Origin: Escherichia coli
GTDB taxonomy: Bacteria > Pseudomonadota > Gammaproteobacteria > Enterobacterales > Enterobacteriaceae
Direction: 5' to 3' (one strand)
Length of the DNA: 64,000 bases
Assembly (NCBI RefSeq): GCF_045037415.1
Contig: NZ_CP173438.1
Within the stretch, counting starts at the first letter, position 1. The number at the start of each line of letters is the position of its first letter. The notes below the pieces were generated by a model. It saw only the letters and a program-made list of their open reading frames with translations. It was not told the DNA's origin and made no database searches. Of the stretch, positions 1-58,910 are shown piece by piece. The position numbers were made by a program, and so were the translations under genes.

Positions 1-3000
1 GTCTGGGAGATGCCCCAGACCGGTTTGAGCAGATTACGCCGGGCGAGGAAGTTATCCTGCTCAAAGCCCAGCGCGCTGGTAAAGACGACGGGCATCGGAA
101 CGGCTGGCACGTTTTGCCGTTGCGCCAGTTGACGCATCACGCGGATGGCTGACACATCGCGGTGGTTGAGGTTCTGGCTCAGCCGCTGCTGTAGTGACTG
201 CGCGCTGTGCAGCCAGCTTTCGCCGGGATGCCAGCTCAGCAGCATCAGCGAGGTGAAATCGCCCAGAATCTGGTTGATTTGCGGGTGCAGCGGTCGCCTG
301 TCGAAAAGCGTAAGGTTAAGCGTGAACTCAGGCTGTGCACTCCATGCAGAGAGAACCGTTGACCACACCGACAACAGTACGGCCGACGGGGTGAGATGGG
401 CGTCAGCCGCCCGTTTTTTCAGCCGATGCCAGCGCGTGCTGTCCAGTGCGCCGTTCAGGCGGGCGAAGCGCGGTGTTTCAACCTCCTGAGGCAAGCAGCG
501 CAGCGGCAACGCAGGCGCCGGAGGAATATCATCAAGCTGCGCCTGCCACCATGCCAGAGAATCTGGATTGGGCGACTGTAGCGAGGGTTGTTGCAGATAA
601 TCCCTGAAGGTGACGGGCAGCGGCGGAAGCAGCTGTTGCGGGTAGCGGTAGCCGTGCTCCAGCTCCGCCAACAGAATCTGCATGCTCAGCCCGTCAAGTA
701 ACAGGTTATCCAGACACAGCCACAGGCGGGCGGGCATCCCGTCAACGTAACCGACCTGGAGATCGAATACCGGCCAGACTTCGGGGTTGAGTACCTGATG
801 GGCCAGTTTTTCGCGCACCTGCAACGCCTCTTCAGGCGTATGGAGGATGTGTGCGGGTATTACCCAGCGAGGCGTCTGTTCGAGCACCTGTTGCTGTCCA
901 TCACGCACGACGGCGCGTAGCATATCGTGGCGGGCGATTAATCGGTTCCAGACCGTCTCCAACCGGGTGAGATCCAGATCGGCAATTTCAAATTCAACAA
1001 AGAAATGTGAGCCGACGCCGCCCAGGGCAAAGCCCGGCTGACGCCCCACTAGGTAAGCCTGCTGCACGTCGGTAAGCGCAAAGGGCTGGTAGCGATCTTC
1101 AGGGGAGTGGACGAATGGTTGTTCGACCGGGACGTCGGTTTTCCGCAGCGTGGCGGCAAAATCCGCCAGCCGGGGATGATTAAACAGGTCGCTTAATTGC
1201 GCTTCATAACCTGCCTGATGAAGTTGCCCGGTCAGACGGGTCGCCAGCAGGCTATCGCCGCCTTGCTGGAAGAAGTCGGTTTCTCTGGTGACATTGCCAG
1301 TTGATAAGAGTTGCTGCCAGAGGGCGGCAACCTGTTTTTCAATGTCGCCCTGGGGTAAATCCGCTTCGGCCGGGTTTTCCGCTTCAGGGGTATGACGACG
1401 CTTCAGCGCCTGGTAGTCAATTTTCCCGTTAGCCGTCAGCGGTAAGGCGTCGAGGAAGACGATCCGTTGCGGCACCATCCACCCCGGCAGACGCCCGGCG
1501 AGGGCGGCCTGAAGTTGACGGGGATCGCGGCGCACCTGCCTGTCAGGACATTGTACGAGGAAGCGTTGTAACCCCGCGACCTCATCGCCATGCTGACAGT
1601 TGAAGCCGGCCGCGCTAAATAATGCCGCCCAGTCGGCGCTGTTATGCAGCAAGGCCTCCGGCTGCCCATTGGTTAACAGGAGCGTGCTGAGTAGGGCGGA
1701 CGGCGTTAACTGGCGAAACTCCATCACGTAGAGCAGCGCGCCGGGAACGGCAAGCTGTTGTAATGTCGCAAGGAGCCCGGGATCTTCCGGCAGCAGACGA
1801 TGCAGGGCGTTATTAAGCCAGATAATGTCCGCCGAGTGAGCGTGCGCCGCCAGCGTGTCTGCATTCCAGAGGGACAGACGGGCGCCAGGCCAGGGGGCGA
1901 GCCTCTGCCGGGCGCTCAGCAGCATCTCCTGGCTCTGCTCAAGCCCGACATACTCAATCTGTCCGGCGTTGAGCTGTGCTAACAGCGATTCTGCGGCGCG
2001 GCCAGTGCGGGTTCCCACCTCAAGCAGGCGCACCGGGCGCTGTAAGCGCTGTGCAAGCTGTTGGCAAATTGTCGCCAGTTCCTGAATATACGGGGCGCTG
2101 GCCGGATGGTTAAAGGCCAGGCTTTCCGGCGACCACTGCGCGTCGTTCAGTAACGACAGTTCGTTACGGGCACCGCGAAGAATTTGCGATAACGTTAAAT
2201 CATGTCCGCTGAAGTGCGGGTGCTCATCCTCGCGTTCTTCACCAGCGCAGACCTGATAACCTTCAGCAGCGGGCTTCAGTCGCCGTTGTGTCACCAGAAA
2301 TGCTAACCAGCGTTCCACCACGGCCTGCCAGCGCGGCTGGATAGCGAGTGAGTTCATCAGGGGGAGAGGATCGGCGCCAGCGGTGTGACCCGGCTTCAGT
2401 TTTAGCAGGCGATGCTGAAGGAAATCGGCTACCTGTTCTGCGGAGATCTCTGGCGAGATGGCGCAACAGGGCAACGTTCCCGCAAGCGTGTGCCACGCCT
2501 GCGGCAGTGCCGGGTTCCGATGATCGGTAACGCAAAAAGCCTCGCCCTGAGGAACAACGTATGCCGCCAGCGTTTTTTCTTTTTCGCCGATCGCCAGAAC
2601 GGTTGCTTGTTTCACCCCCGCCAGCTGGCTGAGCGCGCTTTCGATTTCGCCCAGCTCGATGCGATATCCTCCGACTTTGACCTGCTTGTCGCGACGACCG
2701 AGGAACTCGATTGTGCCATCTGGCCAGTAGCAGCCGAGATCGCCGGTGCGATACCAGCGCTCGTCCGGGAGCGTCAAAAATTGCTGCTCGCTACGCAGGG
2801 GATCGTTGAAATAGCCTTCCGCGACCCCAATGCCGCCAATCCATAATTCACCCGGCACCCAGTCAGGGCAGTCCCGGCCCTGTTCATCCACCACCCGGTA
2901 GCGTTGGTTGGTTAGCGGAAAACCGTAAGGGATGGAGCGCCAGTGGGCGGGGACGTCGTGAATTTCGCAGGCGTTAGACCAGATAGACGCCTCGGTGGCA

Positions 3001-5567
3001 CCGCCCATCGCGATAAATTGTCCTTGTGGCCGGAAGGCCCGATAACGGGCGGGGAGGTCAAGCCCGATCCAGTCGCCGGAAAGCATCACTGCGCGCAGGT
3101 TTTCCGGCGTGGCGTCGGCGAAACCTTCACACCAGGTCAGCAGCATATCGAACAGCGCCGGGACGCTGTTCCAGAGCGTGACCTGATGGCGCTGGATCAG
3201 CTCACACCATGCGTGAGGATCGCGCCGTTGATTTTCCATCACCATCACCAGCGCGCCGCCCGCGCGCAGTACGCCAAAAATGTCGTAAACCGATAAATCA
3301 AAATGTAGGGCGGAGAGGGCCAGCACCCTGTCATGCGGGCCAACCTGATAGCGGGTATTGATATCGCAACAGGTGTTAAGCGCTCCCCGGTGAGAAATGA
3401 CTACCCCTTTCGGCGTACCGGTAGAGCCGGAGGTGTAGATAATGTAGGCCGGTTGCGTGGGGGCGCGTACTACCGGGTTGGCGATCGGCTCCGCCTCAAT
3501 GGCCTGCTGCCAGGCAAGGACGGGAATATCGTCTGACCCGGCGCTGGCGTCGTGCTGACAAATGAGCACCAGCCGGACGCTGGCGTCAGCGTAGATTTTC
3601 TCGCGCCGTGCGGCAGGCTGATCCAGCGAAACCGGAACGTAAACCGCCCCAGCCAGCAGGACGGCCAGAACCGCAACAAGTTGTCCTGCACCTTTCGACA
3701 TCGTGATAGCCACATTATCGCCGGGCTGAACCCCGCACTCGATTAACCTGCCCGCGCAACGGCGGGCATAGTCTGTCAGCTCATGATAATTCCACTGATA
3801 ACGCATGTCCGTTACCGCCAGCGCCTGCGGCTGTTGCAGAGCGATACGGAAAATGCCTTCATGCAGCAAGCCTTCGGGAATGGGGGCGCCGGTGGCGTTG
3901 ACCCGTTCGCGTATCGCGCGCTGGCTGGCGGGCATCATATCTGCGAACGGCTTTTGCCAGGCGCTTTCGTCATCGCAGAGTTGGTTAATCAACTGGCAGT
4001 AGGTATCGAACAATGTTTCGACTAACGCCGGAGGGAACAGCGCGTCGTTGCTGTCCCATTGTAGCCAGACCTCGCCGTGATGCTCGAACGCCAGATGATC
4101 TATCCAGACCTGCGGCGTTTGCGAGATGCCCCATTCCGGCTCGCCCAACGGCGATTCTGCGCGGCTGCTGTAGAGGGAACGCCCCAGATTGCTGGTAAAT
4201 ACCACCGGGGCGCCGTGGGGGTAGCGCTGCTGGCGTTTGAGTTCACGGAGTAATTCGACGCCGGACCAGTGGCGATGCTCCCAGTCCTCCGTAAACGTGA
4301 GCTGGTTTTTACGCGCCAGGTTGCTGACGGTATCGCCATCGCAGGCGGTATCCAGCAGAAGAATATTGGTGAAGTCGGCAAGCATCGCGCCAACCGCCGG
4401 GTGCAGCGGCTGGCGGTCGAATAAGGTGATGTTAAGCAGCAGACGCGTCAGGCCGCCCCAGCGAGCCAGCACGGCAGAAAAACAGGTCGCCAGTGCCATT
4501 GTCGGCGTCACGCCATACTCGCCGGCCCGGTTGCTAAAGGCGTGCCAGCGTGTTGCCGGGACAATCATGCGGCGTCGGGTATTACGGACTTCACGTAGCG
4601 TGGCGGGTTCGCAGGCCAGCGGCAAGACGGGCGCGGGGGGAAGCGTCGATGCTTTCGCCAGCCAGTAAGCGCGCGCGTCGTCTCTCAGTGGTTGATTGAT
4701 CTTCTGCTGGTGCAGCAAATACGAGCGGAAATCATAGCGGGTGTCGATAGCCGGCAGCGATTCTCCGGCCAGCAGGGCGTTAAGCTCATCGAAGAAAAGC
4801 GTAAAGCTGGAGGCATCCATAATCAGCAGGTCAATATTGACATGGAGGCGGTGGCGATTGTCCGGCAAGAGCGTCAGCTGAAAATCAAACGTTTCGCCGA
4901 TTTCCACGCGTAAAAGACGGTGGCTCAGGCGCTGGCGCAGTGCGTCCAGATAGGCCTGGCGGCTTTCAGCGTCGTTATGGCGTAAATCATGAACGGTGAC
5001 GCCGTTCCAGTAAGGTTGCGGTAGCCAGACCTGCTGCCCGTCGGGGCGAAAGGCGATATGCAGCATTGGGTGGCGTTGCAGCAAGGTCGTGATGGCCTGC
5101 TCCAGCTGCGACGCCGTCAGACAATGGCCTTCAAACTCCTGATACAGGTGGCAACCCACGCCGCCAAGCGTCTGCCCCGGCATGCGGCCCGTCAGGTAGG
5201 CGTGCTGTACTGGCGTCAATGGGAAGGGGGTACTTTCGGTCATGTTCGGCCAGGATGATTCGTCGGGCGGCGTTTCTTCTTCCGCGTTCTCCGGCGACCG
5301 GCTGAGCATTAACTGGTTCCATGCCGCCAGCGTGGGGGCGGCATACAGCTCGCGAAGGGTAAGGCGGTAGCCATTTTTACGAAACCAGTGTAACCATCTC
5401 ATCAATCTTATGGAATCCAGGCCGGCCTGGATCAGGTTGCTCTCTTCATGTAACTGCTGCGGCGTTAAATTCAGTTCCTGTATGAGCCGCTCGCGTAATT
5501 GTTGGTAATCAGCCGCGTGGCGGTTGTCCGGTAACAGCGAATCCTGAGATGGTGCGCCAGAAATCAT
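1..5567 (-). CDS. irp2: Yersiniabactin nonribosomal peptide synthetase HMWP2, N-terminal part; gene continues beyond window start
   Basis: Minus-strand frame open from window edge to ATG at 5567-5565 with GGAGG upstream; N-terminus [17 protein letters not shown]; very GC-rich; carrier-protein and cyclization/adenylation-type motifs recognised by recall; missing from ORF track because no stop lies in the window; synteny with ybtA/ybtPQXS. Confidence 0.85.
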
Positions 5568-5757: not shown

Positions 5758-6717
5758 TTACATCCCGCGTTTAAAGGTCGAAGGAGTTACGCCAAACTGT
5801 TTCTGGAAGGCGGCAGAGAAATGGCTGGCGTTGGCATAGCCCAGATCGGCCGCCACCGTCATGACGGAGGTATTGCCGTTGGCCAGGCGTCTTCTGGCTT
5901 CCTGCATTCGTTCAGCCTGAAACAGGCCATAGACGCTGTTGTTGAACAGAACGCGGAAGCCTCGCTTAATTTTGAGAACGCTCAGACCGGACTCTCTGGC
6001 CAGCTCCGCGACGCCCGGCGCTTGCGTCAGATCAGCCAGCAGCAGATCCTTCGCCCGCAGCAGTTTCTGGCGTTCCATCGGGGTGAAGTGGCAGGAGAGG
6101 CAACTGGCGTCTTCGCGATGTTCATCCAGCACCAGACTGAGCATGACCAGACTTTGCCCCTGCAACCATAGCGTCGACGGCTTTTGTTCATGACTGAAGC
6201 CGCTGTGCATGCGCATCAGCGCGTGACGCAAGGCCTGAGCCGTTAAGTGGGTTTCAGCATTACAACGGTGCTGCTGGCAACAGCAGTGGGAGTCGATCTT
6301 ATTCTTAATGACCGCGCTAATATCCGGCACCCACAGCGCGAGGGTTTCAGGGCTGAAGGAGAGGGTAATGCTCTCGAATCGGCCACAATAGGAGGCGCTG
6401 CCGCGACAGTCTGGCGTATGGGTAATGTAATGGCGATTGCGCGCAAGCTCCCAGTCGGTGTGACGCCGGAGTCCCTGAATCGCAAAGCGCGATGTGCCTT
6501 CCAGGATGCACGAGAAGTTAATCCTGCCCAGATCGTCGTGTAGCTGCAACGTCTCAGGCCGCGCAAAATGGCCCCTCCAGAGCAAAATATCCATACCTTC
6601 CTGCAACGAACAGCGCAGCAGTTCACACTGAGCAGGAATATTGCCATCGTTTGCAGGTTTCCCGACCACCAACTGGTGAATAGAGATTTCAGATTGCGTT
6701 TGCGGTGACTCCGTCAT
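5758..6717 (-). CDS. ybtA: AraC-family transcriptional activator of yersiniabactin genes
   Basis: 319-aa ORF; C-terminal AraC-type HTH region; position between irp2 and divergent ybtP as in the HPI. Confidence 0.9.
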   Translation of the reverse strand: MTESPQTQSEISIHQLVVGKPANDGNIPAQCELLRCSLQEGMDILLWRGHFARPETLQLHDDLGRINFSCILEGTSRFAIQGLRRHTDWELARNRHYITHTPDCRGSASYCGRFESITLSFSPETLALWVPDISAVIKNKIDSHCCCQQHRCNAETHLTAQALRHALMRMHSGFSHEQKPSTLWLQGQSLVMLSLVLDEHREDASCLSCHFTPMERQKLLRAKDLLLADLTQAPGVAELARESGLSVLKIKRGFRVLFNNSVYGLFQAERMQEARRRLANGNTSVMTVAADLGYANASHFSAAFQKQFGVTPSTFKRGM

Positions 6718-6883: not shown

Positions 6884-8686
6884 ATGTCATCTCAATCATC
6901 CAATACTGAATCGCTGTCCCGATTTCCTCTTTGGCAGGTGATTACACCGGTTCGCAGGAAGGTTATTTTAGCTATGGCGCTGGCGGGGCTGGCGGCATTA
7001 ACCAGCCTGGGGGCGCTCCTTTTTCTGGCGTGGAGCCTGCGTGACATTCGCGCGACGCCTGACGCTATTCCGGCCTGGCCGCTGGGCGGCGTGATCGGCT
7101 GCGTGGTCTTAACTTTTGTTCTGCGCTTACAGGCGTTCAACACCTCTCATTACGCGGCTTTTCATCTGGAGAACATTCTGCGCAGCAGGTTAGCCCGTAA
7201 AGCATTGCAGCTTCCGCCTGGCGTGTTACAGCAAATGGGCAGCGGGTCAGTGGCGAAAGTGATGCTGGATGACGTGAAGTCGTTACATATTTTTGTGGCC
7301 GACAGCACGCCGCTCTATGCCCGCGCGATCATCATGCCGCTGGCGACAATCGTTATCTTGTTCTGGCTGGACTGGCGGCTGGCAATCGCGACGCTGGGGG
7401 TACTGGCGTTTGGATCGGTTGTTCTCGTGCTCGCCCGCCAGCGTTCGGAAGATATGGCTCAGCGTTATCATAAGGCGCGCGAGCAGGTTAGCGCGGCGGT
7501 TATTGAGTTCGTGCAGGCCATGCCCGTGGTGAGAACGTTTGATAGCGGCAGCACCAGTTTTTTGCGCTATCAACGCGCCCTTGAAGAGTGGGTCGATGTG
7601 CTCAAAACCTGGTATCGCAAAGCCGGTTTTTCAGCGCGTTTTTCCTTCTCGATTCTGAATCCTCTCCCGACCCTGTTTGTCCTGATCTGGTCGGGATACG
7701 GCCTGTTGCACTATGGCAGTTTCGATTTTATCGCGTGGGTGGCCGTTTTACTGCTGGGCAGCGGAATGGCCGAAGCCGTAATGCCAATGATGATGCTCAA
7801 TAACCTGGTCGCGCAAACGCGTTTAAGCATTCAGCGTATTTATCAGGTTCTCGCGATGCCGGAGTTATCGCTGCCGCAGTCTGACCAGCAGCCGCAAGAG
7901 GCGAGCATTACCTTTGAGCAGGTGAGCTTTCATTATCCGCAAGCGCGTACTGGCGCCGCGTTGCAGGAGGTGAGCTTTCATGTGCCTGCCGGGCAAATTG
8001 TGGCGCTGGTCGGGCCAAGCGGCGCCGGAAAAAGCACCGTGGTGCGCTTGCTGCTGCGTTACGCCGACCCGGACAAAGGCCATATCCGTATTGGCGGCGT
8101 GGATCTGCGTGATATGCAGACGGACACCCTGATGAAGCAACTCTCGTTTGTGTTTCAGGACAACTTCCTTTTTGCCGACACGATAGCCAATAACATTCGT
8201 CTGGGCGCGCCGGATACGCCGCTGGAGGCGGTTATAGCGGCGGCCAGAGTGGCGCAGGCCCATGATTTTATTAGCGCTCTGCCAGAAGGTTACAACACTC
8301 GAGTCGGGGAACGTGGGGTATTTCTCTCCGGCGGCCAGCGGCAGCGCATTACTATCGCCCGGGCGCTTTTGCAGGATCGCCCCATCCTGGTGCTCGATGA
8401 GGCGACGGCGTTTGCTGACCCGGAAAACGAAGCGGCGCTTATCAAGGCGCTCGCGGCGGCCATGCGTGGCCGGACGGTCATCATGGTCGCGCATCGTCTC
8501 TCAATGGTGACTCAGGCCGATGTGATATTGCTGTTTTCCGACGGACAGCTCAGGGAAATGGGGAACCATACGCAACTGTTGGCGCAGGGCGGCCTGTATC
8601 AACGGCTCTGGCAACACTATCAGCAGGCGCAGCATTGGGTGCCGGGTGGAACACAGGAAGAGGTGATGGAAAATGAAAGACAATAA
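6884..8686 (+). CDS. ybtP: ABC transporter permease/ATPase fusion (yersiniabactin transport)
   Basis: 600-aa ORF; N-terminal transmembrane region then Walker A GPSGAGKST, ABC signature LSGGQRQR, Walker B ILVLDEAT. Confidence 0.9.
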   Translation: MSSQSSNTESLSRFPLWQVITPVRRKVILAMALAGLAALTSLGALLFLAWSLRDIRATPDAIPAWPLGGVIGCVVLTFVLRLQAFNTSHYAAFHLENILRSRLARKALQLPPGVLQQMGSGSVAKVMLDDVKSLHIFVADSTPLYARAIIMPLATIVILFWLDWRLAIATLGVLAFGSVVLVLARQRSEDMAQRYHKAREQVSAAVIEFVQAMPVVRTFDSGSTSFLRYQRALEEWVDVLKTWYRKAGFSARFSFSILNPLPTLFVLIWSGYGLLHYGSFDFIAWVAVLLLGSGMAEAVMPMMMLNNLVAQTRLSIQRIYQVLAMPELSLPQSDQQPQEASITFEQVSFHYPQARTGAALQEVSFHVPAGQIVALVGPSGAGKSTVVRLLLRYADPDKGHIRIGGVDLRDMQTDTLMKQLSFVFQDNFLFADTIANNIRLGAPDTPLEAVIAAARVAQAHDFISALPEGYNTRVGERGVFLSGGQRQRITIARALLQDRPILVLDEATAFADPENEAALIKALAAAMRGRTVIMVAHRLSMVTQADVILLFSDGQLREMGNHTQLLAQGGLYQRLWQHYQQAQHWVPGGTQEEVMENERQ

Positions 8687-10475
8687 TCCTGCGGATAACC
8701 TGGCCTGGCGCGTCATCTGGCGCCAGCTTATCTCCAGCGTTGGCAGTCAGGCCAGGATGCTGCGACGCAGTATGCTGGCGCTGTTGCTGGCGGCATTCAT
8801 GCAGGGGATCGCCTTTGCCTGTCTTTATCCGATCATTGATGCGCTGTTACGGGGAGACGCGCCGCAACTTCTTAACTGGGCTATGGCCTTCAGCGTCGCC
8901 GCAATTGTGACGCTGGTGCTACGCTGGTATGGCCTGGGCTTTGAATACCGTGGTCATCTGGCGCAGGCTACCCATGAGTTGCGCCTGCGACTTGGCGAGC
9001 AGTTACGCCGCGTGCCGCTGGAGAAGCTCCAGCGCGGCAGGGCGGGTGAAATGAACGCCTTGCTGCTGGGCAGCGTGGATGAAAACCTCAATTATGTTAT
9101 TGCGATAGCCAATATTTTGCTGCTCACCATTGTCACGCCGCTGACGGCGTCGCTGGCGACATTGTGGATAGACTGGCGGCTGGGGCTGGTGATGTTGCTG
9201 ATCTTCCCTCTGCTGGTGCCGTTTTATTACTGGCGCCGCCCGGCGATGCGGCGACAAATGCAGACGCTGGGGGAAGCGCACCAGCGTCTGAGCGGCGATA
9301 TCGTTGAATTTGCTCAGGGGATGATGGTATTGCGCACCTGCGGCAGCGATGCCGATAAAAGCCGGGCGCTGCTGGCGCATTTCAATGCGCTGGAAAACTT
9401 ACAGACCCGCACTCACCGTCAGGGCGCTGGCGCGACGATGCTGATCGCCAGCGTCGTGGAGTTGGGCCTACAGGTGGTGGTGTTATCCGGGATCGTCTGG
9501 GTAGTGACGGGCACTCTGAACCTCGCCTTTTTGATTGCCGCCGTCGCGATGATTATGCGCTTCGCAGAACCGATGGCGATGTTTATCAGCTACACCTCGG
9601 TTGTGGAACTGATCGCCAGCGCCCTGCAAAGGATTGAGCAGTTTATGGCGATAGCACCGCTTCCCGTCGCAGAGCAAAGCGAGATGCCGGAACGTTACGA
9701 TATCCGCTTTGACAACGTCAGCTATCGCTACGAAGAAGGTGACGGCCACGCGCTTAATCATGTTTCTTTGACGTTCCCGGCAGCCAGTATGAGCGCGCTG
9801 GTGGGTGCCTCCGGCGCAGGCAAAACTACCGTCACCAAACTGTTAATGCGCTATGCCGATCCGCAGCAAGGGCAGATTTCTATTGGCGGCGTCGATATTC
9901 GCCGCCTGACGCCGGAACAGCTCAATAGCCTGATTTCTGTTGTTTTCCAGGATGTCTGGCTGTTTGATGACACGCTGCTGGCGAATATCCGTATCGCGCG
10001 CCCACAGGCGACGCGGCAGGAGGTAGAAGAGGCCGCCCGCGCGGCGCAGTGCCTTGAGTTTATTTCCCGTCTTCCGCAAGGCTGGCTGACGCCAATGGGA
10101 GAGATGGGCGGCCAGCTATCGGGCGGCGAGCGCCAGCGGATTTCCATTGCCAGAGCGTTATTGAAAAACGCGCCGGTCGTTATTCTCGATGAACCGACTG
10201 CCGCGCTGGATATTGAAAGCGAGCTGGCGGTGCAAAAAGCGATCGATAACCTGGTTTACAACCGGACGGTGATTATCATCGCTCACCGTTTATCCACCAT
10301 CGCCGGGGCCGGAAACATTCTGGTGATGGAAGAGGGACAGGTGGTTGAGCAGGGTACTCATGCGCAATTGCTCTCACATCATGGACGTTATCAGGCGCTG
10401 TGGCAGGCGCAAATGGCCGCGCGCGTGTGGCGCGACGACGGGGTTTCCGCGTCTGGAGAGTGGGGGCATGAGTGA
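8673..10475 (+). CDS. ybtQ: ABC transporter permease/ATPase fusion (yersiniabactin transport)
   Basis: 600-aa ORF overlapping ybtP end; Walker A GASGAGKTT, signature LSGGERQR, Walker B VILDEPT. Confidence 0.9.
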   Translation: MKDNNPADNLAWRVIWRQLISSVGSQARMLRRSMLALLLAAFMQGIAFACLYPIIDALLRGDAPQLLNWAMAFSVAAIVTLVLRWYGLGFEYRGHLAQATHELRLRLGEQLRRVPLEKLQRGRAGEMNALLLGSVDENLNYVIAIANILLLTIVTPLTASLATLWIDWRLGLVMLLIFPLLVPFYYWRRPAMRRQMQTLGEAHQRLSGDIVEFAQGMMVLRTCGSDADKSRALLAHFNALENLQTRTHRQGAGATMLIASVVELGLQVVVLSGIVWVVTGTLNLAFLIAAVAMIMRFAEPMAMFISYTSVVELIASALQRIEQFMAIAPLPVAEQSEMPERYDIRFDNVSYRYEEGDGHALNHVSLTFPAASMSALVGASGAGKTTVTKLLMRYADPQQGQISIGGVDIRRLTPEQLNSLISVVFQDVWLFDDTLLANIRIARPQATRQEVEEAARAAQCLEFISRLPQGWLTPMGEMGGQLSGGERQRISIARALLKNAPVVILDEPTAALDIESELAVQKAIDNLVYNRTVIIIAHRLSTIAGAGNILVMEEGQVVEQGTHAQLLSHHGRYQALWQAQMAARVWRDDGVSASGEWGHE

Positions 10476-11748
10476 TGTTCAGTCGAATGTGAAACCGCTG
10501 ACGTTGACGACCGGGCGGGTGATTTTTGCTATTGCCGGCGTCTATGTGACGCAGAGTCTGGTATCGGCGCTGTCTATGCAGTCCTTACCCGCGCTGGTGC
10601 GCGCTGCTGGCGGTTCGCTGGCGCTTGCCGGTGCGACAACCCTGTTTATGCTGCCCTGGGCGCTGAAGTTTATTTGGGCGCCGTGGATCGAGCGCTGGCG
10701 GCTTCCGCCCGGTAGCCAGGAACGCCGTTCCCGCATGTTAATCCTGCGTGGTCAGGTCGCGCTAGCGGCGATCCTGACTATTGCCGCAGCGATTGGCTGG
10801 TTTGGGCGAGAAGGGGGATTCCCCGATACGCAAATCGTCGCGTTATTTGTTCTGTTTATGGTGGCAGGCACGGTCGCCTCCACCATTGATATCGCCAGCG
10901 ACGGCTTTTGTGTCGATCAACTGACCCGCACGGGTTACGGCTGGGGAAACAGCGTGCAGGTCGGCGGCAGCTATCTGGGAATGATGTGCGGCGGCGGGGT
11001 GTTCATGATGCTGTCGGCGGCATCCGGCTGGCCTGTCGCCATGCTGATGATGGCGGTGCTGATTATGGCGCTGTCACTCCCGCTGTGGCGCATTACGGAG
11101 CCGACGCGAACAGCGACTATCCCGCATGTTCCGGCGTTAGGTTATGCGCTAAGGAGGAAGCAGGCGCGCCTGGGCTTACTGCTGGTATTGATGCTGAATT
11201 CAGGCATGCGGTTTGTGCTGCCTCTTCTGGCACCGCTGTTGTTGGATCATGGGTTGAGCATGTCCGCATTGGGCGCGCTGTTCAGCGGCGGCAATATTGC
11301 AGCGGGCATAGCAGGAACGCTGGCCGGCGGATTGCTGATGAAATACACCTCACCCGGCAGAGCGCTGTTGACGGCTTATGGCGTCCAGGGGATCGCGCTG
11401 CTGGCGGTGGTGATGACGCTCATGATGGCGCCGGGTCATCTGCTGCTGCAGATTCTCCAGTGTCTGGTCATTGTCCAGTCCATTTCGCTGGCCTGCGCGC
11501 TGGTCTGTCTTTACGCCACGCTGATGTCGCTTTCATCGCCTTTGCAGGCCGGTGTCGACTTCACCCTCTTTCAATGTACTGATGCGGCAATCGCCATTCT
11601 GGCAGGCGTTATCGGTGGCGTTGTTGCTCAACATTTTGGCTATGCGGCCTGCTTCCTGTTTGCCGGGGCATTCACGTTGCTGGCGGCGTGGGTTGCTTAT
11701 ATCCGGCTGCATTCGGCAAGAGAACTGATGACAAGCGCAATTGATTGA
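10468..11748 (+). CDS. ybtX: MFS-type membrane protein of the yersiniabactin locus
   Basis: Polytopic hydrophobic protein; start chosen at ATG 10468 (MSDVQSNVK), which overlaps the ybtQ stop and gives 426 aa; the track ORF starting at 10345 is an upstream extension. Confidence 0.8.
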   Translation: MSDVQSNVKPLTLTTGRVIFAIAGVYVTQSLVSALSMQSLPALVRAAGGSLALAGATTLFMLPWALKFIWAPWIERWRLPPGSQERRSRMLILRGQVALAAILTIAAAIGWFGREGGFPDTQIVALFVLFMVAGTVASTIDIASDGFCVDQLTRTGYGWGNSVQVGGSYLGMMCGGGVFMMLSAASGWPVAMLMMAVLIMALSLPLWRITEPTRTATIPHVPALGYALRRKQARLGLLLVLMLNSGMRFVLPLLAPLLLDHGLSMSALGALFSGGNIAAGIAGTLAGGLLMKYTSPGRALLTAYGVQGIALLAVVMTLMMAPGHLLLQILQCLVIVQSISLACALVCLYATLMSLSSPLQAGVDFTLFQCTDAAIAILAGVIGGVVAQHFGYAACFLFAGAFTLLAAWVAYIRLHSARELMTSAID

Positions 11749-11775: not shown

Positions 11776-13080
11776 ATGAAAATCAGTGAATTTCTACATC
11801 TGGCGTTACCAGAGGAACAATGGCTACCGACGATTTCTGGCGTTTTACGCCAGTTCGCAGAAGAAGAGTGTTATGTCTATGAGCGTCAACCCTGTTGGTA
11901 TTTAGGCAAAGGGTGCCAGGCACGGCTGCACATTAATGCCGACGGAACGCAGGCGACATTTATTGATGATGCCGGGGAGCAAAAATGGGCGGTGGATTCC
12001 ATTGCCGACTGCGCGCGTCGTTTTATGGCGCATCCTCAGGTGAAAGGACGTCGGGTATATGGACAGGTTGGGTTCAACTTTGCGGCGCATGCGCGGGGGA
12101 TTGCCTTTAACGCCGGGGAGTGGCCGCTGCTGACGTTAACCGTTCCCCGTGAAGAACTTATTTTTGAAAAGGGAAATGTCACCGTTTATGCGGACTCCGC
12201 CGACGGGTGCCGACGTTTGTGCGAGTGGGTAAAAGAGGCCGGTACAACGACGCAGAACGCACCACTGGCGGTGGATACCGCCCTCAATGGTGAGGCATAT
12301 AAACAACAGGTTGCGCGCGCCGTTGCGGAGATCCGCCGTGGCGAGTATGTCAAAGTGATTGTCTCGCGCGCCATTCCCCTGCCATCGCGGATTGATATGC
12401 CCGCCACGCTGTTATACGGGCGGCAGGCAAACACGCCTGTGCGCTCGTTTATGTTCCGTCAGGAAGGACGCGAAGCGCTGGGCTTTAGCCCAGAACTGGT
12501 GATGTCAGTGACGGGCAATAAAGTGGTCACTGAACCGCTTGCGGGCACCCGCGATCGCATGGGAAACCCGGAGCATAATAAGGCGAAAGAGGCAGAACTG
12601 CTGCACGACAGTAAAGAGGTGCTTGAGCATATCCTTTCTGTCAAAGAAGCTATTGCTGAACTGGAGGCCGTTTGCCAGCCGGGCAGCGTGGTGGTTGAAG
12701 ATTTAATGTCGGTTCGCCAGCGCGGCAGCGTTCAGCATCTGGGGTCTGGCGTGAGCGGTCAGCTTGCGGAAAACAAGGATGCCTGGGATGCGTTTACCGT
12801 GCTGTTTCCGTCGATTACCGCCTCAGGTATCCCTAAAAATGCTGCTCTGAACGCGATTATGCAAATTGAGAAGACGCCGCGAGAGCTTTATTCCGGCGCA
12901 ATCCTGCTGCTGGACGATACGCGCTTTGATGCGGCGCTAGTTCTGCGTTCCGTATTTCAGGATAGCCAGCGCTGCTGGATACAGGCGGGGGCGGGAATCA
13001 TCGCGCAATCTACGCCGGAACGCGAACTGACAGAAACCCGGGAGAAATTAGCGAGCATTGCGCCCTATTTAATGGTGTAG
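11776..13080 (+). CDS. ybtS: Salicylate synthase (chorismate-utilising enzyme)
   Basis: 434-aa ORF with RBS; chorismate-binding fold motifs (anthranilate/isochorismate synthase family); last gene of ybtPQXS operon. Confidence 0.9.
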   Translation: MKISEFLHLALPEEQWLPTISGVLRQFAEEECYVYERQPCWYLGKGCQARLHINADGTQATFIDDAGEQKWAVDSIADCARRFMAHPQVKGRRVYGQVGFNFAAHARGIAFNAGEWPLLTLTVPREELIFEKGNVTVYADSADGCRRLCEWVKEAGTTTQNAPLAVDTALNGEAYKQQVARAVAEIRRGEYVKVIVSRAIPLPSRIDMPATLLYGRQANTPVRSFMFRQEGREALGFSPELVMSVTGNKVVTEPLAGTRDRMGNPEHNKAKEAELLHDSKEVLEHILSVKEAIAELEAVCQPGSVVVEDLMSVRQRGSVQHLGSGVSGQLAENKDAWDAFTVLFPSITASGIPKNAALNAIMQIEKTPRELYSGAILLLDDTRFDAALVLRSVFQDSQRCWIQAGAGIIAQSTPERELTETREKLASIAPYLMV

Positions 13081-13273: not shown

Positions 13274-14536
13274 CTATGGGATAAACTTATTTTTACCAAT
13301 TGTATAAGGCGGTGCATAAGATTCTCGGCATGCTTCCAGATAATCCGACCACCACTGCATCATCGCTTTGCGGGCTTCCAGGTGCTCTGCCTTATGAATA
13401 TAAGCCATGCGCACGGTATTGCGCTCCTGATGACTCATCTGGCGTTCTACTGCGTCCTTTGCCCATAAACCCGATTCCATCAGCGCACTGCATGCCATTG
13501 CCCGGAAGCCGTGACCGCAGATATCCTTTTTCGTGTCGTAACCCATCACCCGCAGTGCCTTATTGACCGTGTTTTCACACATTGGCTTATACGGGTTATG
13601 GTCGCCGGGGAAGATCAGTTCATTATTACCGGTGATATCCTTAATCTGTTTCAGAATGGCGATGGACTGTTCTGAGAGGGGGACGATATGCGGCATTCGC
13701 ATTTTTGCCCCGCGGCCGGAATAACGCACGCCAATAATGGGTTCTCGCGTCGCGGGTATCGTCCAGACTCGGTTTGTGAAATCAATCTCTGACCAGCGGG
13801 CGAAACGCAGTTCACTGGAGCGAATGAACACATGCAGCATCAGCAGAACGGCATGCCGGGTCAGTTCACGGCCCTGATGATATGCCCCAATACGTTCAAG
13901 CAGTTCAGGCAGCCGCTCCAGCGGCAGGGCAGGATAGTGCCGTCTGACAGGAGGTGTGGTCACGCCGCCAAGGTTTGCTGCAGGGTTCGTATCGATTAAC
14001 TCCTGATGGACCGCATGGCGCATTATGTTACTCAGGTGCTGCCGTGTGCGGGACGCAACCTCCAGCAGACCTTTTTCCTCGATCCCTTTCAGCAGGTCAA
14101 TGAAATGACGGGGTTTAAGTTCTGATACAGGTAGGTTCCCGATGACCGGAAAGATGTGATTGTTCAGGCTGGCAAGCAGACGGTCGGCGGTGTTCTGCGA
14201 CCATTTCCTGTTACTTTTATGCCACGCCAGCGCCACGTTTTTAAAAACTTTCTCCGGTGTTCGTGAGCCACGTACAGCAGCCCGCTGCTGTACCGGGTTG
14301 ATATTCAGCGCCAGCATTTTACGGATACCTTCACGTTGCTGTCGCGCATCAGACAGGGAGATGGCTGGATAGGTACCCAGCGCAATGCGGGATTCTTTAC
14401 CGCTAATACGGTATTTGAGATACCAGTGGCGGGAGCCACCCGGCTTGACCCGCAGATACAGACCGTGAGAATCGGAGACTTTAAAGGGTTTATCAGAAGG
14501 CTTGAGGGTGCGGATTTTTGCGCTGGTAAGGGACAT
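13274..14536 (-). CDS. intB: P4-like tyrosine integrase of the HPI
   Basis: 420-aa ORF adjacent to tRNA-Asn; tyrosine recombinase C-terminal catalytic region; HPI synteny. Confidence 0.85.
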   Translation of the reverse strand: MSLTSAKIRTLKPSDKPFKVSDSHGLYLRVKPGGSRHWYLKYRISGKESRIALGTYPAISLSDARQQREGIRKMLALNINPVQQRAAVRGSRTPEKVFKNVALAWHKSNRKWSQNTADRLLASLNNHIFPVIGNLPVSELKPRHFIDLLKGIEEKGLLEVASRTRQHLSNIMRHAVHQELIDTNPAANLGGVTTPPVRRHYPALPLERLPELLERIGAYHQGRELTRHAVLLMLHVFIRSSELRFARWSEIDFTNRVWTIPATREPIIGVRYSGRGAKMRMPHIVPLSEQSIAILKQIKDITGNNELIFPGDHNPYKPMCENTVNKALRVMGYDTKKDICGHGFRAMACSALMESGLWAKDAVERQMSHQERNTVRMAYIHKAEHLEARKAMMQWWSDYLEACRESYAPPYTIGKNKFIP

Positions 14537-14697
14537 ATGGGGGTCACTCCATTATCGAACTAACCTGACCCCAGATTTGACCACCAATTTTTCCCGATGC
14601 GTAGGGTAAAATCAAAATGCACTGAGAAGAGTTTTCACACTAACCTGTTGAATCAACATCAGATAAAGATTCGCAAGGATGCATGAAAACAGAAAAT

Positions 14698-14773
14698 TGG
14701 CTCCTCTGACTGGACTCGAACCAGTGACATACGGATTAACAGTCCGCCGTTCTACCGACTGAACTACAGAGGA
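14698..14773 (-). tRNA. asnT: tRNA-Asn (GTT anticodon)
   Basis: 76-nt exact reverse complement of the E. coli tRNA-Asn sequence as recalled, ending CCA; assignment to the asnT copy is inferred from adjacent mtfA. Confidence 0.9.
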
Positions 14774-14873
14774 ATCGTGAGAACGGGGCGCATATTACTT
14801 AGCGGTACCTTGTCTGTCAACACTAAATTTCATAAGCCATTTCAATTGGTTAATTAATCTGCAAAGTTGTTAA

Positions 14874-15671
14874 TTAATGAACATTCGTCGCCGAAAACGA
14901 GTCTGTATCATTAGCGTGATGCAGTCTCTGCAAAGGATCTTGTTGATAAAATTGACAGAAACGTTGCCACAATGAAGGGAAACGAGGAGCAAAAAGTTCT
15001 GGGGCGCTAAAGAAATATTCAGAAAGTACGGCAAAACATTCAGCAGGATCACTGGCAGCATAAGCATCAATGCTCGCCGCATTCTCACCAACTAATTCGA
15101 TTTCTTCCTGAATGTTGTTCATTGCAGCATGAAGATCGTGTTCCCAGCCAGCAACCTCACGCAACGAAATAAAGGGAACTCCGCTGGCGCGATCGCCGTT
15201 ACGGGTGTCCAGCTTATGAGCGACTTCATGAATAATCAGGTTAAAACCAGAAGCATCAAAAGAATCTTGTATATCCAACCAGTTCAAAACGATAGGCCCT
15301 TGCTGCCAGCTCTGACCTGACTGAACAATACGTTGGTTATGCACCAGACCGATATCGTCTTCCCATTCATCATCGACCACAAATGGCGCAGGATAAATTA
15401 AGATTTCATGAAAACCATCCAGCCATTCCAGTCCTAACTCCAGAACGGGCAGGCAAAATAGAAGTGCTATCCGGCAGCTTCTTAATGAATTCAGCTCAAA
15501 GCCCTGTAAAGGAACAAGCCGTTTTTGCTGTAAAAAACGTTCGGCAAGAGCGACCAATTTGCTTTGTTCCTGTTCTGTCAGACACGTTAAAAGGGGGATC
15601 GATAGTGCTTCCTGCCAGGGAAGGGCAGTTTGATGTGCTGATTCTTGTACTTTCCAGGGCCACTTAATCAT
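14874..15671 (-). CDS. mtfA: Mlc titration factor A (zinc-dependent peptidase family)
   Basis: Start chosen at MIKWPWK (265 aa); HEVAH zinc-binding motif present; the track ORF to 15710 is a 13-codon upstream extension. Confidence 0.85.
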
Positions 15672-15764
15672 CGTTTTGCTCGCAAACTCGTCACTTGAAC
15701 AAAATTGCACGGACAGGGACTGTTAAAATGCCAAATTTCCTGGCATCATGGCAACCATCTGAAC

Positions 15765-15855
15765 GGAGAGATGCCGGAGCGGCTGAACGGACCGGTTCTC
15801 GAAAACCGGAGTGGGGGCAACTCCACCGGGGGTTCAAATCCCCCTCTCTCCGCCA
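15765..15855 (+). tRNA. serU: tRNA-Ser (CGA anticodon region), serU-like, 3' part rebuilt from prophage attachment site
   Basis: 91 nt, GGAGAGA acceptor stem pairing with TCTCTCC, long variable arm, ends CCA; differs from canonical serU as recalled by one extra T in the anticodon loop and a compensatory G/C pair in the variable arm. Confidence 0.75.
15793..15855 (+). repeat. attL core: 63-bp direct repeat (tRNA-Ser 3' segment, phage-type variable arm)
   Basis: Identical to 55886-55948 except two positions (GTGGGGG/CTCCACC here versus GTAGGGG/CTCTACC at attR); identity ends exactly at CCA. Confidence 0.7.
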
Positions 15856-15900
15856 AAATTCAATCACTTACACATCATTAAGTCAGTGACAAAAATCACA

Positions 15901-15933
15901 CTTGGAATTACTTGGAATATTTTCTTGGAATAT
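15901..15933. repeat. Three direct repeats of CTTGGAAT(A/T)T, putative integrase arm-type binding sites
   Basis: CTTGGAATTA, CTTGGAATAT, CTTGGAATAT within 33 bp next to attL core, overlapping int 3' end; related copies at 55774-55783 and inverted at 55838-55846. Confidence 0.45.
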
Positions 15934-16933
15934 TTTCAGGTAACGGGACATCAAGTGTTGGTGAAACTTTAACCTTCCTGTCATAGATTAGCACTTGCCC
16001 CTCGGTTTTGTGACCAGAGAAAAGTTGCTTATCCCGGCTGCTTCCTTCATAGTCTGAAATTCCTTTCGCCTTCAGATCATGAAAGGTGAAGTCGGTTAAA
16101 ATACCTGAAATTTTGCCTGCGCGATTTCTTGCTTCTACCCACATTTCGTTAAAGCCTTTGTACATATATCGGTTGCCATATTGATTGCTGATTACATAGA
16201 CGGATGCTGGTAACTGTTTTGCTTTTTCGATCGCCGCCTGTAATCGTGGACTCCATGCTTTTATCTGTTTTTTCCCTGTTTTCCCTTGCTGGATAAAGAT
16301 CCCGTCGTTTCCAATCTGCTCCCATTTCAGTGATAACACATCGGAAACCCTCGCTGCACACAGATAGGCAATTTCCATTGCGATAAAAACAGGAAGAGGT
16401 GCAACGCTTAATACTGCCTGGTATTCTTTGTCGGTTACATATCGTTCGCGGTTTTTGGCCTTGAATTTACTTACACCTGCACATGGGTTAGCCTTCACGT
16501 ACCCTCGCTCATATCCCCAACTGTAAACGCGGGACATACTGCTTTTTTCATGGTTGGCTTGCGTTTTGCTCTGTTCCCCTCTTTTGTCCATGTATCGACG
16601 GATGTGTTCTGGTTTTATGGAATCCGCTGGTACCTTACCGAATACGGCAAGCAACTTTTTTTGATGTTGCAGATAATCTTTTTGTGTTCTTGGGCTAAGG
16701 TCACTGTAACAGGCGCTGGCGAGGAATTTTTCCCACAAGCGACCGAATGTCATTGCACGATCGCGATTATTTACAGTTTCCTCATACTTTTTCCATAAAG
16801 CAGCTAAACCATCCTTGATGGCGGTTAGTGTTACAGATTCTCTGGATGTTGGTTTCCATACATAACTATATTTATTTGGGTATACATTTGGAGGTAATTT
16901 TTCGTGTTCAGGATTTTTCCTTCGTCTTCCCAT
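15908..16933 (-). CDS. int: Phage tyrosine integrase
   Basis: 341-aa ORF next to attL/tRNA; C-terminal recombinase-type region (candidate HxxR and Tyr motifs). Confidence 0.9.
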   Translation of the reverse strand: MGRRRKNPEHEKLPPNVYPNKYSYVWKPTSRESVTLTAIKDGLAALWKKYEETVNNRDRAMTFGRLWEKFLASACYSDLSPRTQKDYLQHQKKLLAVFGKVPADSIKPEHIRRYMDKRGEQSKTQANHEKSSMSRVYSWGYERGYVKANPCAGVSKFKAKNRERYVTDKEYQAVLSVAPLPVFIAMEIAYLCAARVSDVLSLKWEQIGNDGIFIQQGKTGKKQIKAWSPRLQAAIEKAKQLPASVYVISNQYGNRYMYKGFNEMWVEARNRAGKISGILTDFTFHDLKAKGISDYEGSSRDKQLFSGHKTEGQVLIYDRKVKVSPTLDVPLPENIPRKYSK

Positions 16934-17136
16934 CAGATCGCACCAAAATTCGGCTCTACCTCGCGTGGTGGTAAAGTTTTATTGCAGGTAAATAGATCCC
17001 GGCTGACAATCGGTTTGCCACTACGATTGGTATAGAACGGAAGCCCGTTTTCCATTAACCATTTTCGCTGGTGACTTGCATATTTGCAGCCCGTTAATAT
17101 TAGCAATTCATCTTTGGTTAAAAATAAGCTGCTCAT
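16933..17136 (-). CDS. Putative excisionase / small DNA-binding protein
   Basis: 67-aa ORF immediately upstream of and coupled to int; position typical of xis; no motif confirmed. Confidence 0.45.
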   Translation of the reverse strand: MSSLFLTKDELLILTGCKYASHQRKWLMENGLPFYTNRSGKPIVSRDLFTCNKTLPPREVEPNFGAI

Positions 17137-20705: not shown

Positions 20706-20873
20706 GATGGCAGCCTCCGCGATGAATTTGATTAACTCACCACCGAGGTTTTCCACGACCATAAGGGTGGTGAGACGTACAGGGGTGGAAATACCGGTCA
20801 TCACGGAACCCGGCCAGCCTTGCGGCTGCCCTGCACGCCCCACCATAATGCGAATGTGGCTGTGCTTAACGCA

Positions 20874-20898
20874 TAAAAAAACCGCCTGAGCGCGGTTA
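20874..20898 (-). terminator. Rho-independent terminator (minus strand) upstream of rha
   Basis: On minus strand AACCGC-GCTCAG-GCGGTT followed by TTTTTTTAT. Confidence 0.45.
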
Positions 20899-21540
20899 TG
20901 CGCCGTGAATGATTTCGGGTTTCCACGCCCGGCACCCGTTTTATGAGGTGCAGGTGCACTATAATTCCACCCGTTCTGGTTTTCAATAGCTACATTCAAC
21001 ATTTTCTCTACCTTTCATCACCGAAGTGAACTTTGTTGATGCGGTGCCTGGTGCCTCCAGGTGACGTTAACCAGTTAACAATTAACGCCGGATACAGAGA
21101 ATCCACCCATAACACTGTTTTTGGTTTTAACTGTTCCGCGTGCGCTTAGCCGCATTCACCGCATCACAAAATTCACTTTAAAAAGGGCGGCAGAGCAGTC
21201 ACGGAGTAGAACTGATACCGCCAAAAGTCACCAGAAAATTGATAACAGAGGGCGTTGCAGCGGGGTTGTCACTTAAGCGTATGGTCAACCTGACAACCCG
21301 GTGTCCTCAACGGGGGAAGGAATAACCCCGCCATACTTACCGCCGCGCCATTTCGCGGATTGCCACAACCGGAAGCGCACGGTCGACGAAAATTTAACGA
21401 CTACCTACAGAGAGACGAACTTCGCCGTGCGCTTTCGCGTTATGCCCTGACTTTTCAGGGATATATCCTTTTCAGTAAACTGTCAGTGCCGGATTCTTAT
21501 CCGTGTCCGGCGCACGCACTCTACCTCACCTGTGAATAAA

Positions 21541-28553: not shown

Positions 28554-28755
28554 ATACAGCGAACGCCATTGGTTTAGTTGGATATTTACTGTGCCGGACA
28601 AAAACGGTTTGCGGGGAAATCTTAGTTAAGTAGAATAACTGCGGGTGCTTGAGGCTATCTGTCTCAGGCATGAACACCAAAAGGCAGATAGAGAAAAGCC
28701 CCAGTTAACATTACGCGTCCTGCAAGACGCTTAACATTAATCTGAGGCCATATCT

Positions 28756-28815
28756 ATGCGACACATAGAGATTAGCCTCTTACGGACCGAAAGGTCAAGG
28801 AGAAGCAGGCTATGA
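28756..28815 (+). other. Short leader ORF (19 codons) ending in TGA overlapping the hok-like start; mok-like coupling frame
   Basis: ATG 28756, stop TGA 28813-28815 overlapping ATG 28812. Confidence 0.3.
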
Positions 28816-28967
28816 AGCAGCAAAAGGCGATGTTAATCGCCCTGATCGTCATCTGTTTAACCGTCATAGTGACGGCACTGGTAACGAGGAAAGACCTCTG
28901 CGAGGTACGAATCCGAACCGGCCAGACGGAGGTCGCTGTCTTCACAGCTTACGAACCTGAGGAGTAA
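28812..28967 (+). CDS. hok: Hok/Gef-family type I toxin (51 aa)
   Basis: MKQQKAMLIALIVICLTVIVTALVTRKDLCEVRIRTGQTEVAVFTAYEPEE: single TM helix plus conserved C-terminal Hok motif; GGAGAAG RBS region. Confidence 0.85.
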   Translation: MKQQKAMLIALIVICLTVIVTALVTRKDLCEVRIRTGQTEVAVFTAYEPEE

Positions 28968-29035
28968 AGAACCCGGCGAGGGATAAATCCCTCGCCACCT
29001 CTGATGTGGCAGGCATCCTCAACGCACCCGCACTT

Positions 29036-52781: not shown

Positions 52782-55157
52782 ATGCATCGTATAGACACGA
52801 AAACCGCGCAGAAGGATAAGTTCGGCGCGGGTAAGAACGGTTTTACCCGTGGTAACCCCCAGACCGGCACGCCTGCCACCGATCTGGATGATGACTACTT
52901 TGACATGTTGCAGGAAGAACTTTGCAGCGTGGTGGAGGCCTCCGGTGCCAGTCTGGAGAAGGCGCGGCACGACCAGCTGCTTACCGCGCTTCGTGCGCTG
53001 CTGTTAAGCCGCAAAAATCCGTTTGGCGATATCAAATCGGATGGCACGGTAGAACGCGCTCTTGAAAATCTGGGGTTACAGGATGTAAAAGCTGGTTCAT
53101 TGAACAATCTGTACACTAACCATTCCCGTAGTGTCTTAATGGAATTGCCGTTATTATTCCCAGACTACGATACGGTGCTGGCTGCTCAGTCTGGTGCGGA
53201 ATATATGTATCCACAGGGATTTGTGGTGACAGGAGAAAAAATCTATCTGAGTTATACCGTTGAGCCAAAGCAGACACGGAACGTTATAGTTCAGTACACA
53301 ACATCCGGCGAATATGAGGGATATTATTATGTCGATAATGGAGGTCGTGGCGTTGTCAGCGAAGGCCTTGTGGTGACAACGGATTACGGTGGATTACGTT
53401 TGTTCATGTCAGGAGAAAATGGATTACTGAAACAGTTTTCGCTTGATGGGGCAATTTCTGGTTCAGTATTGCCGTTAATTGATGAACATGATGTCGGTGT
53501 TTACAACCAGTTCAGCTATCGTAAAAACCGCTGGGTGGTTGAACAGTCAGCGCCGGAAGTGGGAGGCCTGATCACCCGCACAGTATTTGCGGTGTATGAT
53601 TTTCAGTTTCGTCGGACAGGGACATTCACATTACCGTTGCATGATTCCGGATATATCACGGAAAGCACAGACAGCTATGCAAGACGCTTCACAAAACGTC
53701 AGGGAATTGCTGTGGGAGACGATTATATTGCCTGTTCTTATGGTGGCTATTTTAATACCGGGGCATCAGCCGGATTTAACCAGTTTCAGGGGGTTAAGGT
53801 CTTTTCTCCGGATGGAGTAAAGCAGCAGGAATCCATTCTTCATCCCCAAAAAATGATAGATGTGCTTACCAGGCAGGGTTTTACACCTTCGCGCATTGAG
53901 AACGAAGGAATTTGTATTTCTGACGACGGCGGCAGTATATATTCGCTTTATATCTTTCTGGAGCGTGGGTTACCACAGGCTTATCAGAAAGGAATTGTTC
54001 TGATGAAAGAGTTCAGTACTGGCAGAGATGCTATTGATTTTCGTCAGGCAGCCTGGTTGTACACGGGGTTTGATGTGTCTCATGCCAGTATTGGAACATT
54101 TCCCCGTAGTGCCCAGGGGTTGGTAAACCCGGTGTTGGGGACGGTATTCACATCCCTGTCTGAAATTCTGGCATATATGCGTTCTGTGAGTCAGAAATGG
54201 TTTTGTCTGCATACAACCACGACACCGATTAAAGATCTGAGTGGAAATGACATTCCTGCTGACAATTATGTGTTCATCAAGAATGCTAATAACCAGACAT
54301 TCTATATAACGCAGGAGTCAGCTGAAGGTGGAATAAAATATAAAGCTGTCACTACAGACAGCGGAGAATATGGTTTTCAGCGACAAAGAGAGGCAATCTG
54401 GTCCAATGTTATCACCATCGCACAAAAGAGCGATGGTGAGGATCAGTTTAATCGTATTATCGCTGCCTCGAAAAGTGGTTCAGGTAAAAATCAGGATAAA
54501 ATACTGGTAGTTGACCAACAGGCATCAGAGGGGAATAACACGCTGGTAATTGGCGGTGGTTCATCTGTGTTCAGGTCAGCGACAGTGATTGATTTTGCAA
54601 CGAATCAGGATGCAAATGCCACAGGAGGAGAAAAGAGATGGCGCATAGATTCATCAGGAAATCTCCGCCCTTATACAGATAATACGTATTCGATCGGTTA
54701 TGCCTCATGGCGACCCGCACAGGTTTATTCAGCTACGGGAAGTATCAGTACATCAGACCGGACTCATAAACAGGACGAAACAATTCTGTCGGATGCAGAA
54801 AAAAGGGTTGCCAGAAAGCTGCTCGGGTATATCTGTCGGTTCCGTTTCAGAGATGCAGTGTCCAGCAAAGGGAACGCAGCCAGATGGCATGTAGGAGTGA
54901 TTGCTCAGGACGTACAGAAGGTCTTCTCTGAGGAAGGGCTGGACGCTTTTGATTACGGTATTTTGTGTCGTGATGAATATCCGGCGGAATATGAAGTGGT
55001 TTACGGGACTCGTATGGAGCTTGGTCCTGACGGACTCCTTACAATGGAAGAATACGATACCGGAGAGCGCAAGCTGGTCAGGGAGGCTGGTGAAATAATG
55101 TCTGTAAGGAATGATGAGCTGCATTATTTCATGCTGGCATCGCTGTCTGGCCAGTGA
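52782..55157 (+). CDS. Tail fiber protein with C-terminal intramolecular chaperone (peptidase S74-like) domain
   Basis: 791 aa; conserved N-terminus, AT-rich variable central part, C-terminal S-D-R-T-H-K motif (about 54750-54770) and downstream conserved block typical of self-cleaving chaperone domains. Confidence 0.75.
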
Positions 55158-55846: not shown

Positions 55847-55885
55847 AAAAATTTTTAACTCTTTGATTTTTCGACTCTGTATCAT

Positions 55886-57477: not shown

Positions 57478-58910
<1,433 letters not shown>

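Follow-up and report, generated by a model that had tools for sequence, protein, structure and literature searches.

Two integrative elements at the adjacent tRNA genes asnT and serU flank mtfA in an Escherichia coli genome

The window, that is, the whole stretch of 64,000 nucleotides (64 kb) of Escherichia coli DNA that was analyzed, contains two tRNA genes detected by ARAGORN, with mtfA between them. The tRNA-Asn(GUU) gene asnT (positions 14698–14773, minus strand) was identified by ARAGORN (anticodon GTT) and the Rfam tRNA model (72.6 bits) and is identical to that of K-12. The gene serU (15765–15855, plus strand), a class-II tRNA gene of 91 nt in the ARAGORN output, corresponds to tRNA-Ser(CGA) and is a host/phage chimera that carries an assembly artefact, the T at 15796. 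The gene mtfA (yeeI; 14874–15671, minus strand), which encodes the Mlc/DgsA anti-repressor and M90 peptidase, is intact as judged by its open reading frame, Pfam, and comparison with K-12; its product of 265 aa has a full-length Peptidase_M90 match (E = 2.6e-60, Pfam) and differs from K-12 MtfA at four residues. The asnT-mtfA-serU interval spans 1.16 kb, and the DNA from 14694 to about 15870 is collinear with K-12, which has the gene order serU-mtfA-asnT with both tRNA sites empty. The mtfA-serU spacer of 93 nt, the expected location of the mtfA promoter, is identical to K-12, and the asnT-mtfA spacer has three substitutions. Both tRNA genes are transcribed outward from mtfA, with their 3' ends facing away from it. 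Integrative elements go in at the 3' sides of tRNA genes, and asnT and serU are textbook integration hotspots. Because elements insert at these 3' sides and both 3' ends face away from mtfA, the two insertions lie outside the 1.16-kb interval.

The sequence-only reading of this DNA had placed an HPI integrase against tRNA-Asn on one side of mtfA and a prophage integrase against tRNA-Ser on the other, and both placements were borne out: the HPI integrase gene (13274–14536, minus strand) ends 161 nt from the 3' end of asnT, and the prophage integrase gene (15908–16933, minus strand) ends 52 nt from the 3' end of serU. The block sizes that it had given, 14+ kb and 40 kb, likewise agree with the 14.7 kb of HPI contained in the window and with prophage repeats 40,093 bp apart. 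It had further described about 1.1 kb of core DNA (mtfA) sandwiched between the two blocks. The sandwiched interval stands, being collinear with K-12, but the term “core” needs qualification, as yeeI (= mtfA) is co-transferred with the HPI (PMC2606025).

The left block was annotated with reference to E. coli Ecol_AZ146 (AZ146), to which the window is 99.99% identical. Mapping of the PGAP annotation of AZ146 to the window identified the 3' part of irp2 (HMWP2; 1–5567, minus strand), from which the HPI runs on past the left window end. Open reading frames combined with the same annotation identified the yersiniabactin regulator gene ybtA (5758–6717, minus strand), ybtP (6974–8686, plus strand), ybtQ (8673–10475, plus strand), ybtX (10468–11748, plus strand), and ybtS (Irp9, salicylate synthase; 11776–13080, plus strand), the last of which is present in 2,266 of 5,426 genomes. 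The HPI integrase is a P4-type tyrosine recombinase of 420 aa with Arm-DNA-bind_3, Phage_int_M, and Phage_integrase domains. The 17-bp HPI attachment core CCAGTCAGAGGAGCCAA occurs as an exact match at the 3' end of asnT (14697–14713, minus strand), in a single copy in the window, and K-12 homology stops at this point. The annotation of the matching DNA in AZ146 comprises irp2, ybtA, ybtP, ybtQ, ybtX, ybtS, the integrase, and tRNA-Asn, and the island of that genome continues past the window edge with irp1, ybtU, ybtT, ybtE, and fyuA, up to a yeeJ remnant. The block is accordingly an HPI by its ybt/irp cluster, its P4-type integrase by the 3' end of an asn tRNA gene, and the 17-bp core at the junction. 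A search of AZ146 between fyuA and the yeeJ remnant for a second 17-bp core, with three or fewer mismatches, found none. The island therefore has the deleted fyuA-side direct repeat of the common E. coli type, as examined in the near-identical AZ146, and the common type is known to be located at asnT and to be fixed and non-excisable (PMC2606025). Because the distal repeat is lost in AZ146, the HPI of the window strain, whose left end is off-window, is likewise probably fixed, with no site-specific excision. An asnT island of 31,448 bp, 99% identical to the HPI of Y. pestis, was described in the ST131 reference strain EC958 (PMC3203889), and the 100% matches to the segment from the HPI integrase to the putative prophage excisionase gene (13274–17136) include a strain named O25b:H4-ST131.

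The right block is a prophage of 40.1 kb bounded by a 63-nt direct repeat, whose two copies, 40,093 bp apart, are both intact and both located to the right of mtfA. A comparable 25-mer match was found in none of 100 shuffled sequences. The attL copy (15793–15855, plus strand) is the 3' part of serU, 63 nt in length (62 without the artefact), and is followed by phage DNA; in its phage-type variable arm (G15813/C15824), a compensatory G-C pair replaces A-U. The attR copy (55886–55948, plus strand), in which the T at 55889 is likewise attributed to assembly, holds the host's own serU 3' part in its displaced position; its variable arm is of the K-12 type, and the K-12 flank comes next. Comparison of 15813 and 15824 with 55906 and 55917 shows the phage-borne G-C in place of the host A-U, with pairing kept in the chimeric tRNA. 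As these two variable-arm differences separate attL from attR, the crossover must have occurred before 15813, within the serU anticodon stem-loop, and the expressed serU is a host/phage chimera with a host 5' part and phage-borne sequence from the anticodon loop onward. The repeats duplicate the 3' part of the tRNA gene and the gene is regenerated (as tRNA-Ser(CGA) in the error-free genome), as is typical for a temperate phage that uses a tRNA gene. The phage version of the arm occurs in roughly a fifth of genomes, as estimated from sampled match rows, close to the 21% in which serU is joined to the prophage. Two phage records, vB_EcoS-689R5 and vB_EcoM-606R7, were considered as a source of attP and rejected, as both are predicted prophages whose sequence extends over the HPI integrase, asnT, and mtfA and contains only attL.

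The prophage integrase (341 aa) is of the ST64B type, with 58% identity to ST64B Int and conservation of R195, H285, K288, H308, and Y317. The adjacent gene (16933–17136, minus strand) encodes a DUF4224 protein (Pfam) that is probably the excisionase, as it is 35% identical (E = 9e-9) to Sb29 of ST64B, an annotated excisionase. Thus, an integrase with its catalytic residues lies by attL together with a candidate directionality factor, and both proteins may well be active. PGAP labels the integrase (15883–16933) as “frameshifted” in identical genomes. The difference concerns only residues past 328, in the tail that follows the catalytic Tyr317, and this tail exceeds that of ST64B Int by 12 aa; the label was therefore judged to reflect a C-terminal tail difference past the catalytic tyrosine. 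The records found with this integrase included none derived from virions, the two “phage” records being prophage predictions with host flanks.

The prophage body (17195–55157) was characterized by the PGAP annotation of AZ146, Rfam, and comparison of the structural module with the Sf phages. Its early and regulatory content includes a RecE-like exonuclease, dicB/DicF, a repressor, cro, replication genes, and hokD/sok, and its late content includes lysis genes, a P27-type terminase, an HK97-type head, a Mu/SfV-type contractile tail, and a tail fibre. The packaging, head, and contractile-tail module is 94–97% identical to SfV, SfIV, SfII, and SfI over 55–71% of 20 kb, and according to annotation and Sf-phage similarity the regulatory, replication, lysis, and morphogenesis modules are all complete. 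The prophage is a mosaic of an SfV-like body and an ST64B-type, serU-specific integration module. A serotype-converting phage of the SfV kind would be expected to have an SfV-type integration module and gtr genes by the attachment site; here, Int is ST64B-like, the site is serU, and no open reading frame of 90 aa or more is present between the tail fibre gene and attR (55157–55886), the expected position of the gtr O-antigen cluster. The body also contains a cluster of known small RNAs (C4 antisense, isrK, and DicF), dicB, and the hokD/sok toxin-antitoxin locus at 20763–21236 and 28643–28967. A 463-aa AAA_16/STAND-like NTPase is encoded at 31507–32898, with the late-regulator region on one side and the lysis genes on the other, in DNA with a low GC content of about 40–42%. 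By its placement it resembles a typical prophage accessory gene, and it may serve in defence; when the accessory genes of the prophage were scanned with PADLOC for defence systems, weak P-loop matches only were returned. No statement assigning the serU prophage one of the ST131 names (Phi1–Phi7) was found in the EC958 papers or by full-text search.

Beyond the prophage, the first core gene to the right is zinT (56618–57268, minus strand; annotation and mapping from AZ146). About 1 kb of K-12 sequence from the serU flank to zinT is replaced by 222 nt (56396–56617) and yodB is absent; yodB is likewise unannotated in AZ146. An IS1397 (IS3-family) transposase region (57520–58878) differs from AZ146 at 58001, where the programmed-frameshift run is A8 in the window and A7 in AZ146, and the A8 run fuses orfA and orfB into an open reading frame of 452 aa. 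The eighth A is probably a sequencing error in the homopolymer, although a genuine allele with a fused transposase could also account for it.

Two departures from the expected gene structures, one in serU and one in the prophage tail, depend on how single inserted bases are read. ARAGORN reported the window serU as “tRNA-??? (cg)” and not as Ser because its anticodon loop contains an additional T, at 15796, where the window has GGTTCTC and both K-12 and AZ146 have GGTCTC. Taken at face value, this T would give the lysogen a tRNA-Ser with an anticodon loop of 8 nt (or 6 nt) that is inactive or frameshift-prone, and its presence in both attL and attR, as well as in ten other assemblies with the identical 91-nt sequence, fits such a reading. 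We nevertheless consider a real T extremely improbable, as the comparison with AZ146, in which serU is 90 nt long with a single T at both att sites and is called tRNA-Ser(CGA), places the insertion among a recurrent class of miscalls. The window and AZ146 have only seven differences in 64 kb, and four of these hit the GGTCTC/GAGACC motif, at four of its five sites (15796, 28967–28970, 43843, and 55889; mostly GGTCTC to GGTTCTC), for which the chance is about 5e-12. Among 5,425 matching genome records, the 91-nt sequence recurs only in the ten assemblies, which come from a single “Esc” series; a member of this series, Esc8, shows another miscall (GGTTCC) at the serU site, and the other 5,415 records are without the extra T. 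Moreover, the Eco31I-type system EcoMI of ST131 methylates GAG(m6A)CC / GGT(m5C)TC at 100% of sites (PMC4659465). Since the differences fall on this motif, the sharing is restricted to the “Esc” series, and ST131 methylates the motif, the extra T is a basecalling or polishing artefact. The possibility that the T was brought in by the attP arm of the phage, or spread by gene conversion between attL and attR, resulting in a real 8-nt loop, was also considered and rejected on account of the single T at both sites in AZ146 and the position of the differences on GGTCTC. The tail sheath gene (42967–44464) is similarly split in the window into two open reading frames (42967–43938 and 43793–44464), where AZ146 has one gene of 498 aa, and this false split is attributed to an artefactual A at 43843. 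Miscalls at methylated GGTCTC motifs can thus produce an apparently aberrant tRNA and an apparent tail-gene frameshift, either of which could be mistaken for biology. The split sheath frame would otherwise, together with the PGAP flag of a frameshifted integrase and the lack of a virion-derived record among those found, favor a fixed cryptic remnant that has lost the capacity for excision. Such a remnant is unlikely given that the sheath gene is intact in AZ146 and the split lies at a GAGACC artefact, that the catalytic region of an integrase longer than ST64B Int is conserved, and that attL, attR, and the modules for morphogenesis, lysis, and replication are intact or complete.

Comparative genomics of the asnT-mtfA-serU interval, which the sequence-only reading had proposed as a check, was carried out over 5,426 complete E. 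coli genomes. The junction of an HPI-type integrase with asnT and mtfA was found in 2,467 genomes, a count that takes in about 200 genomes lacking ybtS as well as junctions, some in number, at which the integrase is only 86–88% identical. The junction of mtfA, serU, and this prophage integrase was found in 1,143 genomes, and both junctions were contiguous in 488; an empty K-12-type serU was found in 3,850 genomes and an empty K-12-type asnT-yeeJ in 2,670. The 488 genomes with both junctions compare with about 520 expected if the two were independent, in a test that ignores phylogeny, so that, with the same proviso, the HPI and the serU prophage assort about independently. The adjacency of the blocks, the 488 genomes with both, and the possible co-transfer of the HPI with mtfA, given that the HPI spreads by homologous recombination along with the yeeI (= mtfA) flank (PMC2606025), might together suggest that the two blocks form one composite element whose shared ends enclose mtfA. 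A single composite element is refuted by the separate ends and distributions, and we regard it as having virtually no probability: both prophage att copies lie to the right of mtfA, each junction often occurs alone (at least 1,979 genomes with the asnT junction and without this prophage, and about 655 in the reverse state), the interval is collinear with the empty locus of K-12, and neither a pair of ends around both blocks nor a joint distribution was found. The two integrases are also unrelated, with no significant similarity (BLASTP E = 1.3) and a different domain make-up. The earlier description of two independent elements on adjacent tRNA genes is thereby confirmed, and the locus is, with high confidence, a double integration hotspot at which different elements were inserted by unrelated tyrosine recombinases, the HPI on the 3' side of asnT and the prophage on the 3' side of serU. 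We infer the order of the insertion events, in which a P4-type integrase would have targeted the last 17 bp of asnT to insert the HPI, which would then have been fixed by deletion of the fyuA-side repeat (as suggested by the 99.99%-identical genome). An SfV-like prophage with an ST64B-type integrase would have recombined within the serU anticodon stem-loop and supplied its own tRNA 3' part; the original 3' part of serU now lies 40 kb away at attR.

The sequence-only reading had gone on to suggest that mtfA expression and local architecture are potentially sensitive to excision of either element, and this part found no support: the insertions are outside the interval, asnT and the spacer are as in K-12, and the HPI is probably fixed. 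The outward geometry of asnT and serU would have left mtfA and its spacers K-12-like, and excision of the prophage would restore a K-12-type serU with the mtfA promoter region untouched. Some effect of the flanking elements on mtfA expression is nonetheless conceivable by read-through on induction, as mtfA shares its strand with the prophage early-left operon (exo-xis-int) and a simple, crude scan found no terminator-like site between the prophage int stop and mtfA; an analogy is the “escape synthesis” of gal by phage lambda. Such an effect is quite improbable in view of the intact mtfA, the mtfA-serU spacer identical to K-12, and a fixed HPI downstream of asnT, and the two elements probably leave mtfA unaffected. 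A more specific and likewise improbable possibility, based on the matching strands and the lack of a terminator-like site in the scan, is that upon prophage induction transcription of the early-left genes (exonuclease, excisionase, and integrase; minus strand) reads through attL, antisense to serU and in the sense direction into mtfA and asnT. If so, read-through would transiently raise the Mlc anti-repressor MtfA and tie prophage induction to the control of sugar uptake.

The earlier description of the locus was accurate and the arrangement is an ordinary one, with the functional speculation on mtfA unsupported. As a discovery it has little weight, since an HPI at asnT is known from ST131, and 536 and CFT073 are listed with serU and asnT both occupied; its practical use is a measured occupancy table of the locus for 5,426 complete genomes, with about independent assortment of the two elements, together with a caution that the methylated GGTCTC motif is miscalled in this assembly.

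Compared with known systems, the HPI shares with the common E. coli type the ybt/irp cluster, the P4-type integrase by asnT, the 17-bp core at the tRNA 3' end, the missing fyuA-side repeat (checked in the near-identical genome), and the co-transferred yeeI (= mtfA) flank, with nothing notable to distinguish it and its distal end off-window. The integration module of the prophage resembles that of Salmonella phage ST64B, with an Int 58% identical, shared catalytic residues, a small excisionase-like gene upstream, and an attP with the tRNA-Ser(CGA) 3' part from the anticodon stem onward, whereas identity in the structural genes reaches only about 76% and extends over a third of the module. The Shigella flexneri phages SfV, SfIV, SfII, and SfI share the packaging, head, and contractile-tail module but differ in integration: Sf phages integrate at thrW, the closest Int relative among true phage records is 61% identical, and the listed relatives include no Sf phage. 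In the uropathogenic strains 536 and CFT073, a review table lists PAI-serU (TcpC, 22 kb) adjoining the HPI at asnT (PMC7545054). As in our window, both tRNA hotspots are filled there, the two islands being about 1.6 kb apart by their listed coordinates, but serU is occupied in those strains by a 22-kb island with 38% GC that encodes TcpC (PAI VII536 and the CFT073 serU island) and here by a 40-kb SfV-like prophage with an ST64B-type integrase. Double occupancy of asnT and serU is already known, and only the occupant of serU differs from that in 536 and CFT073.
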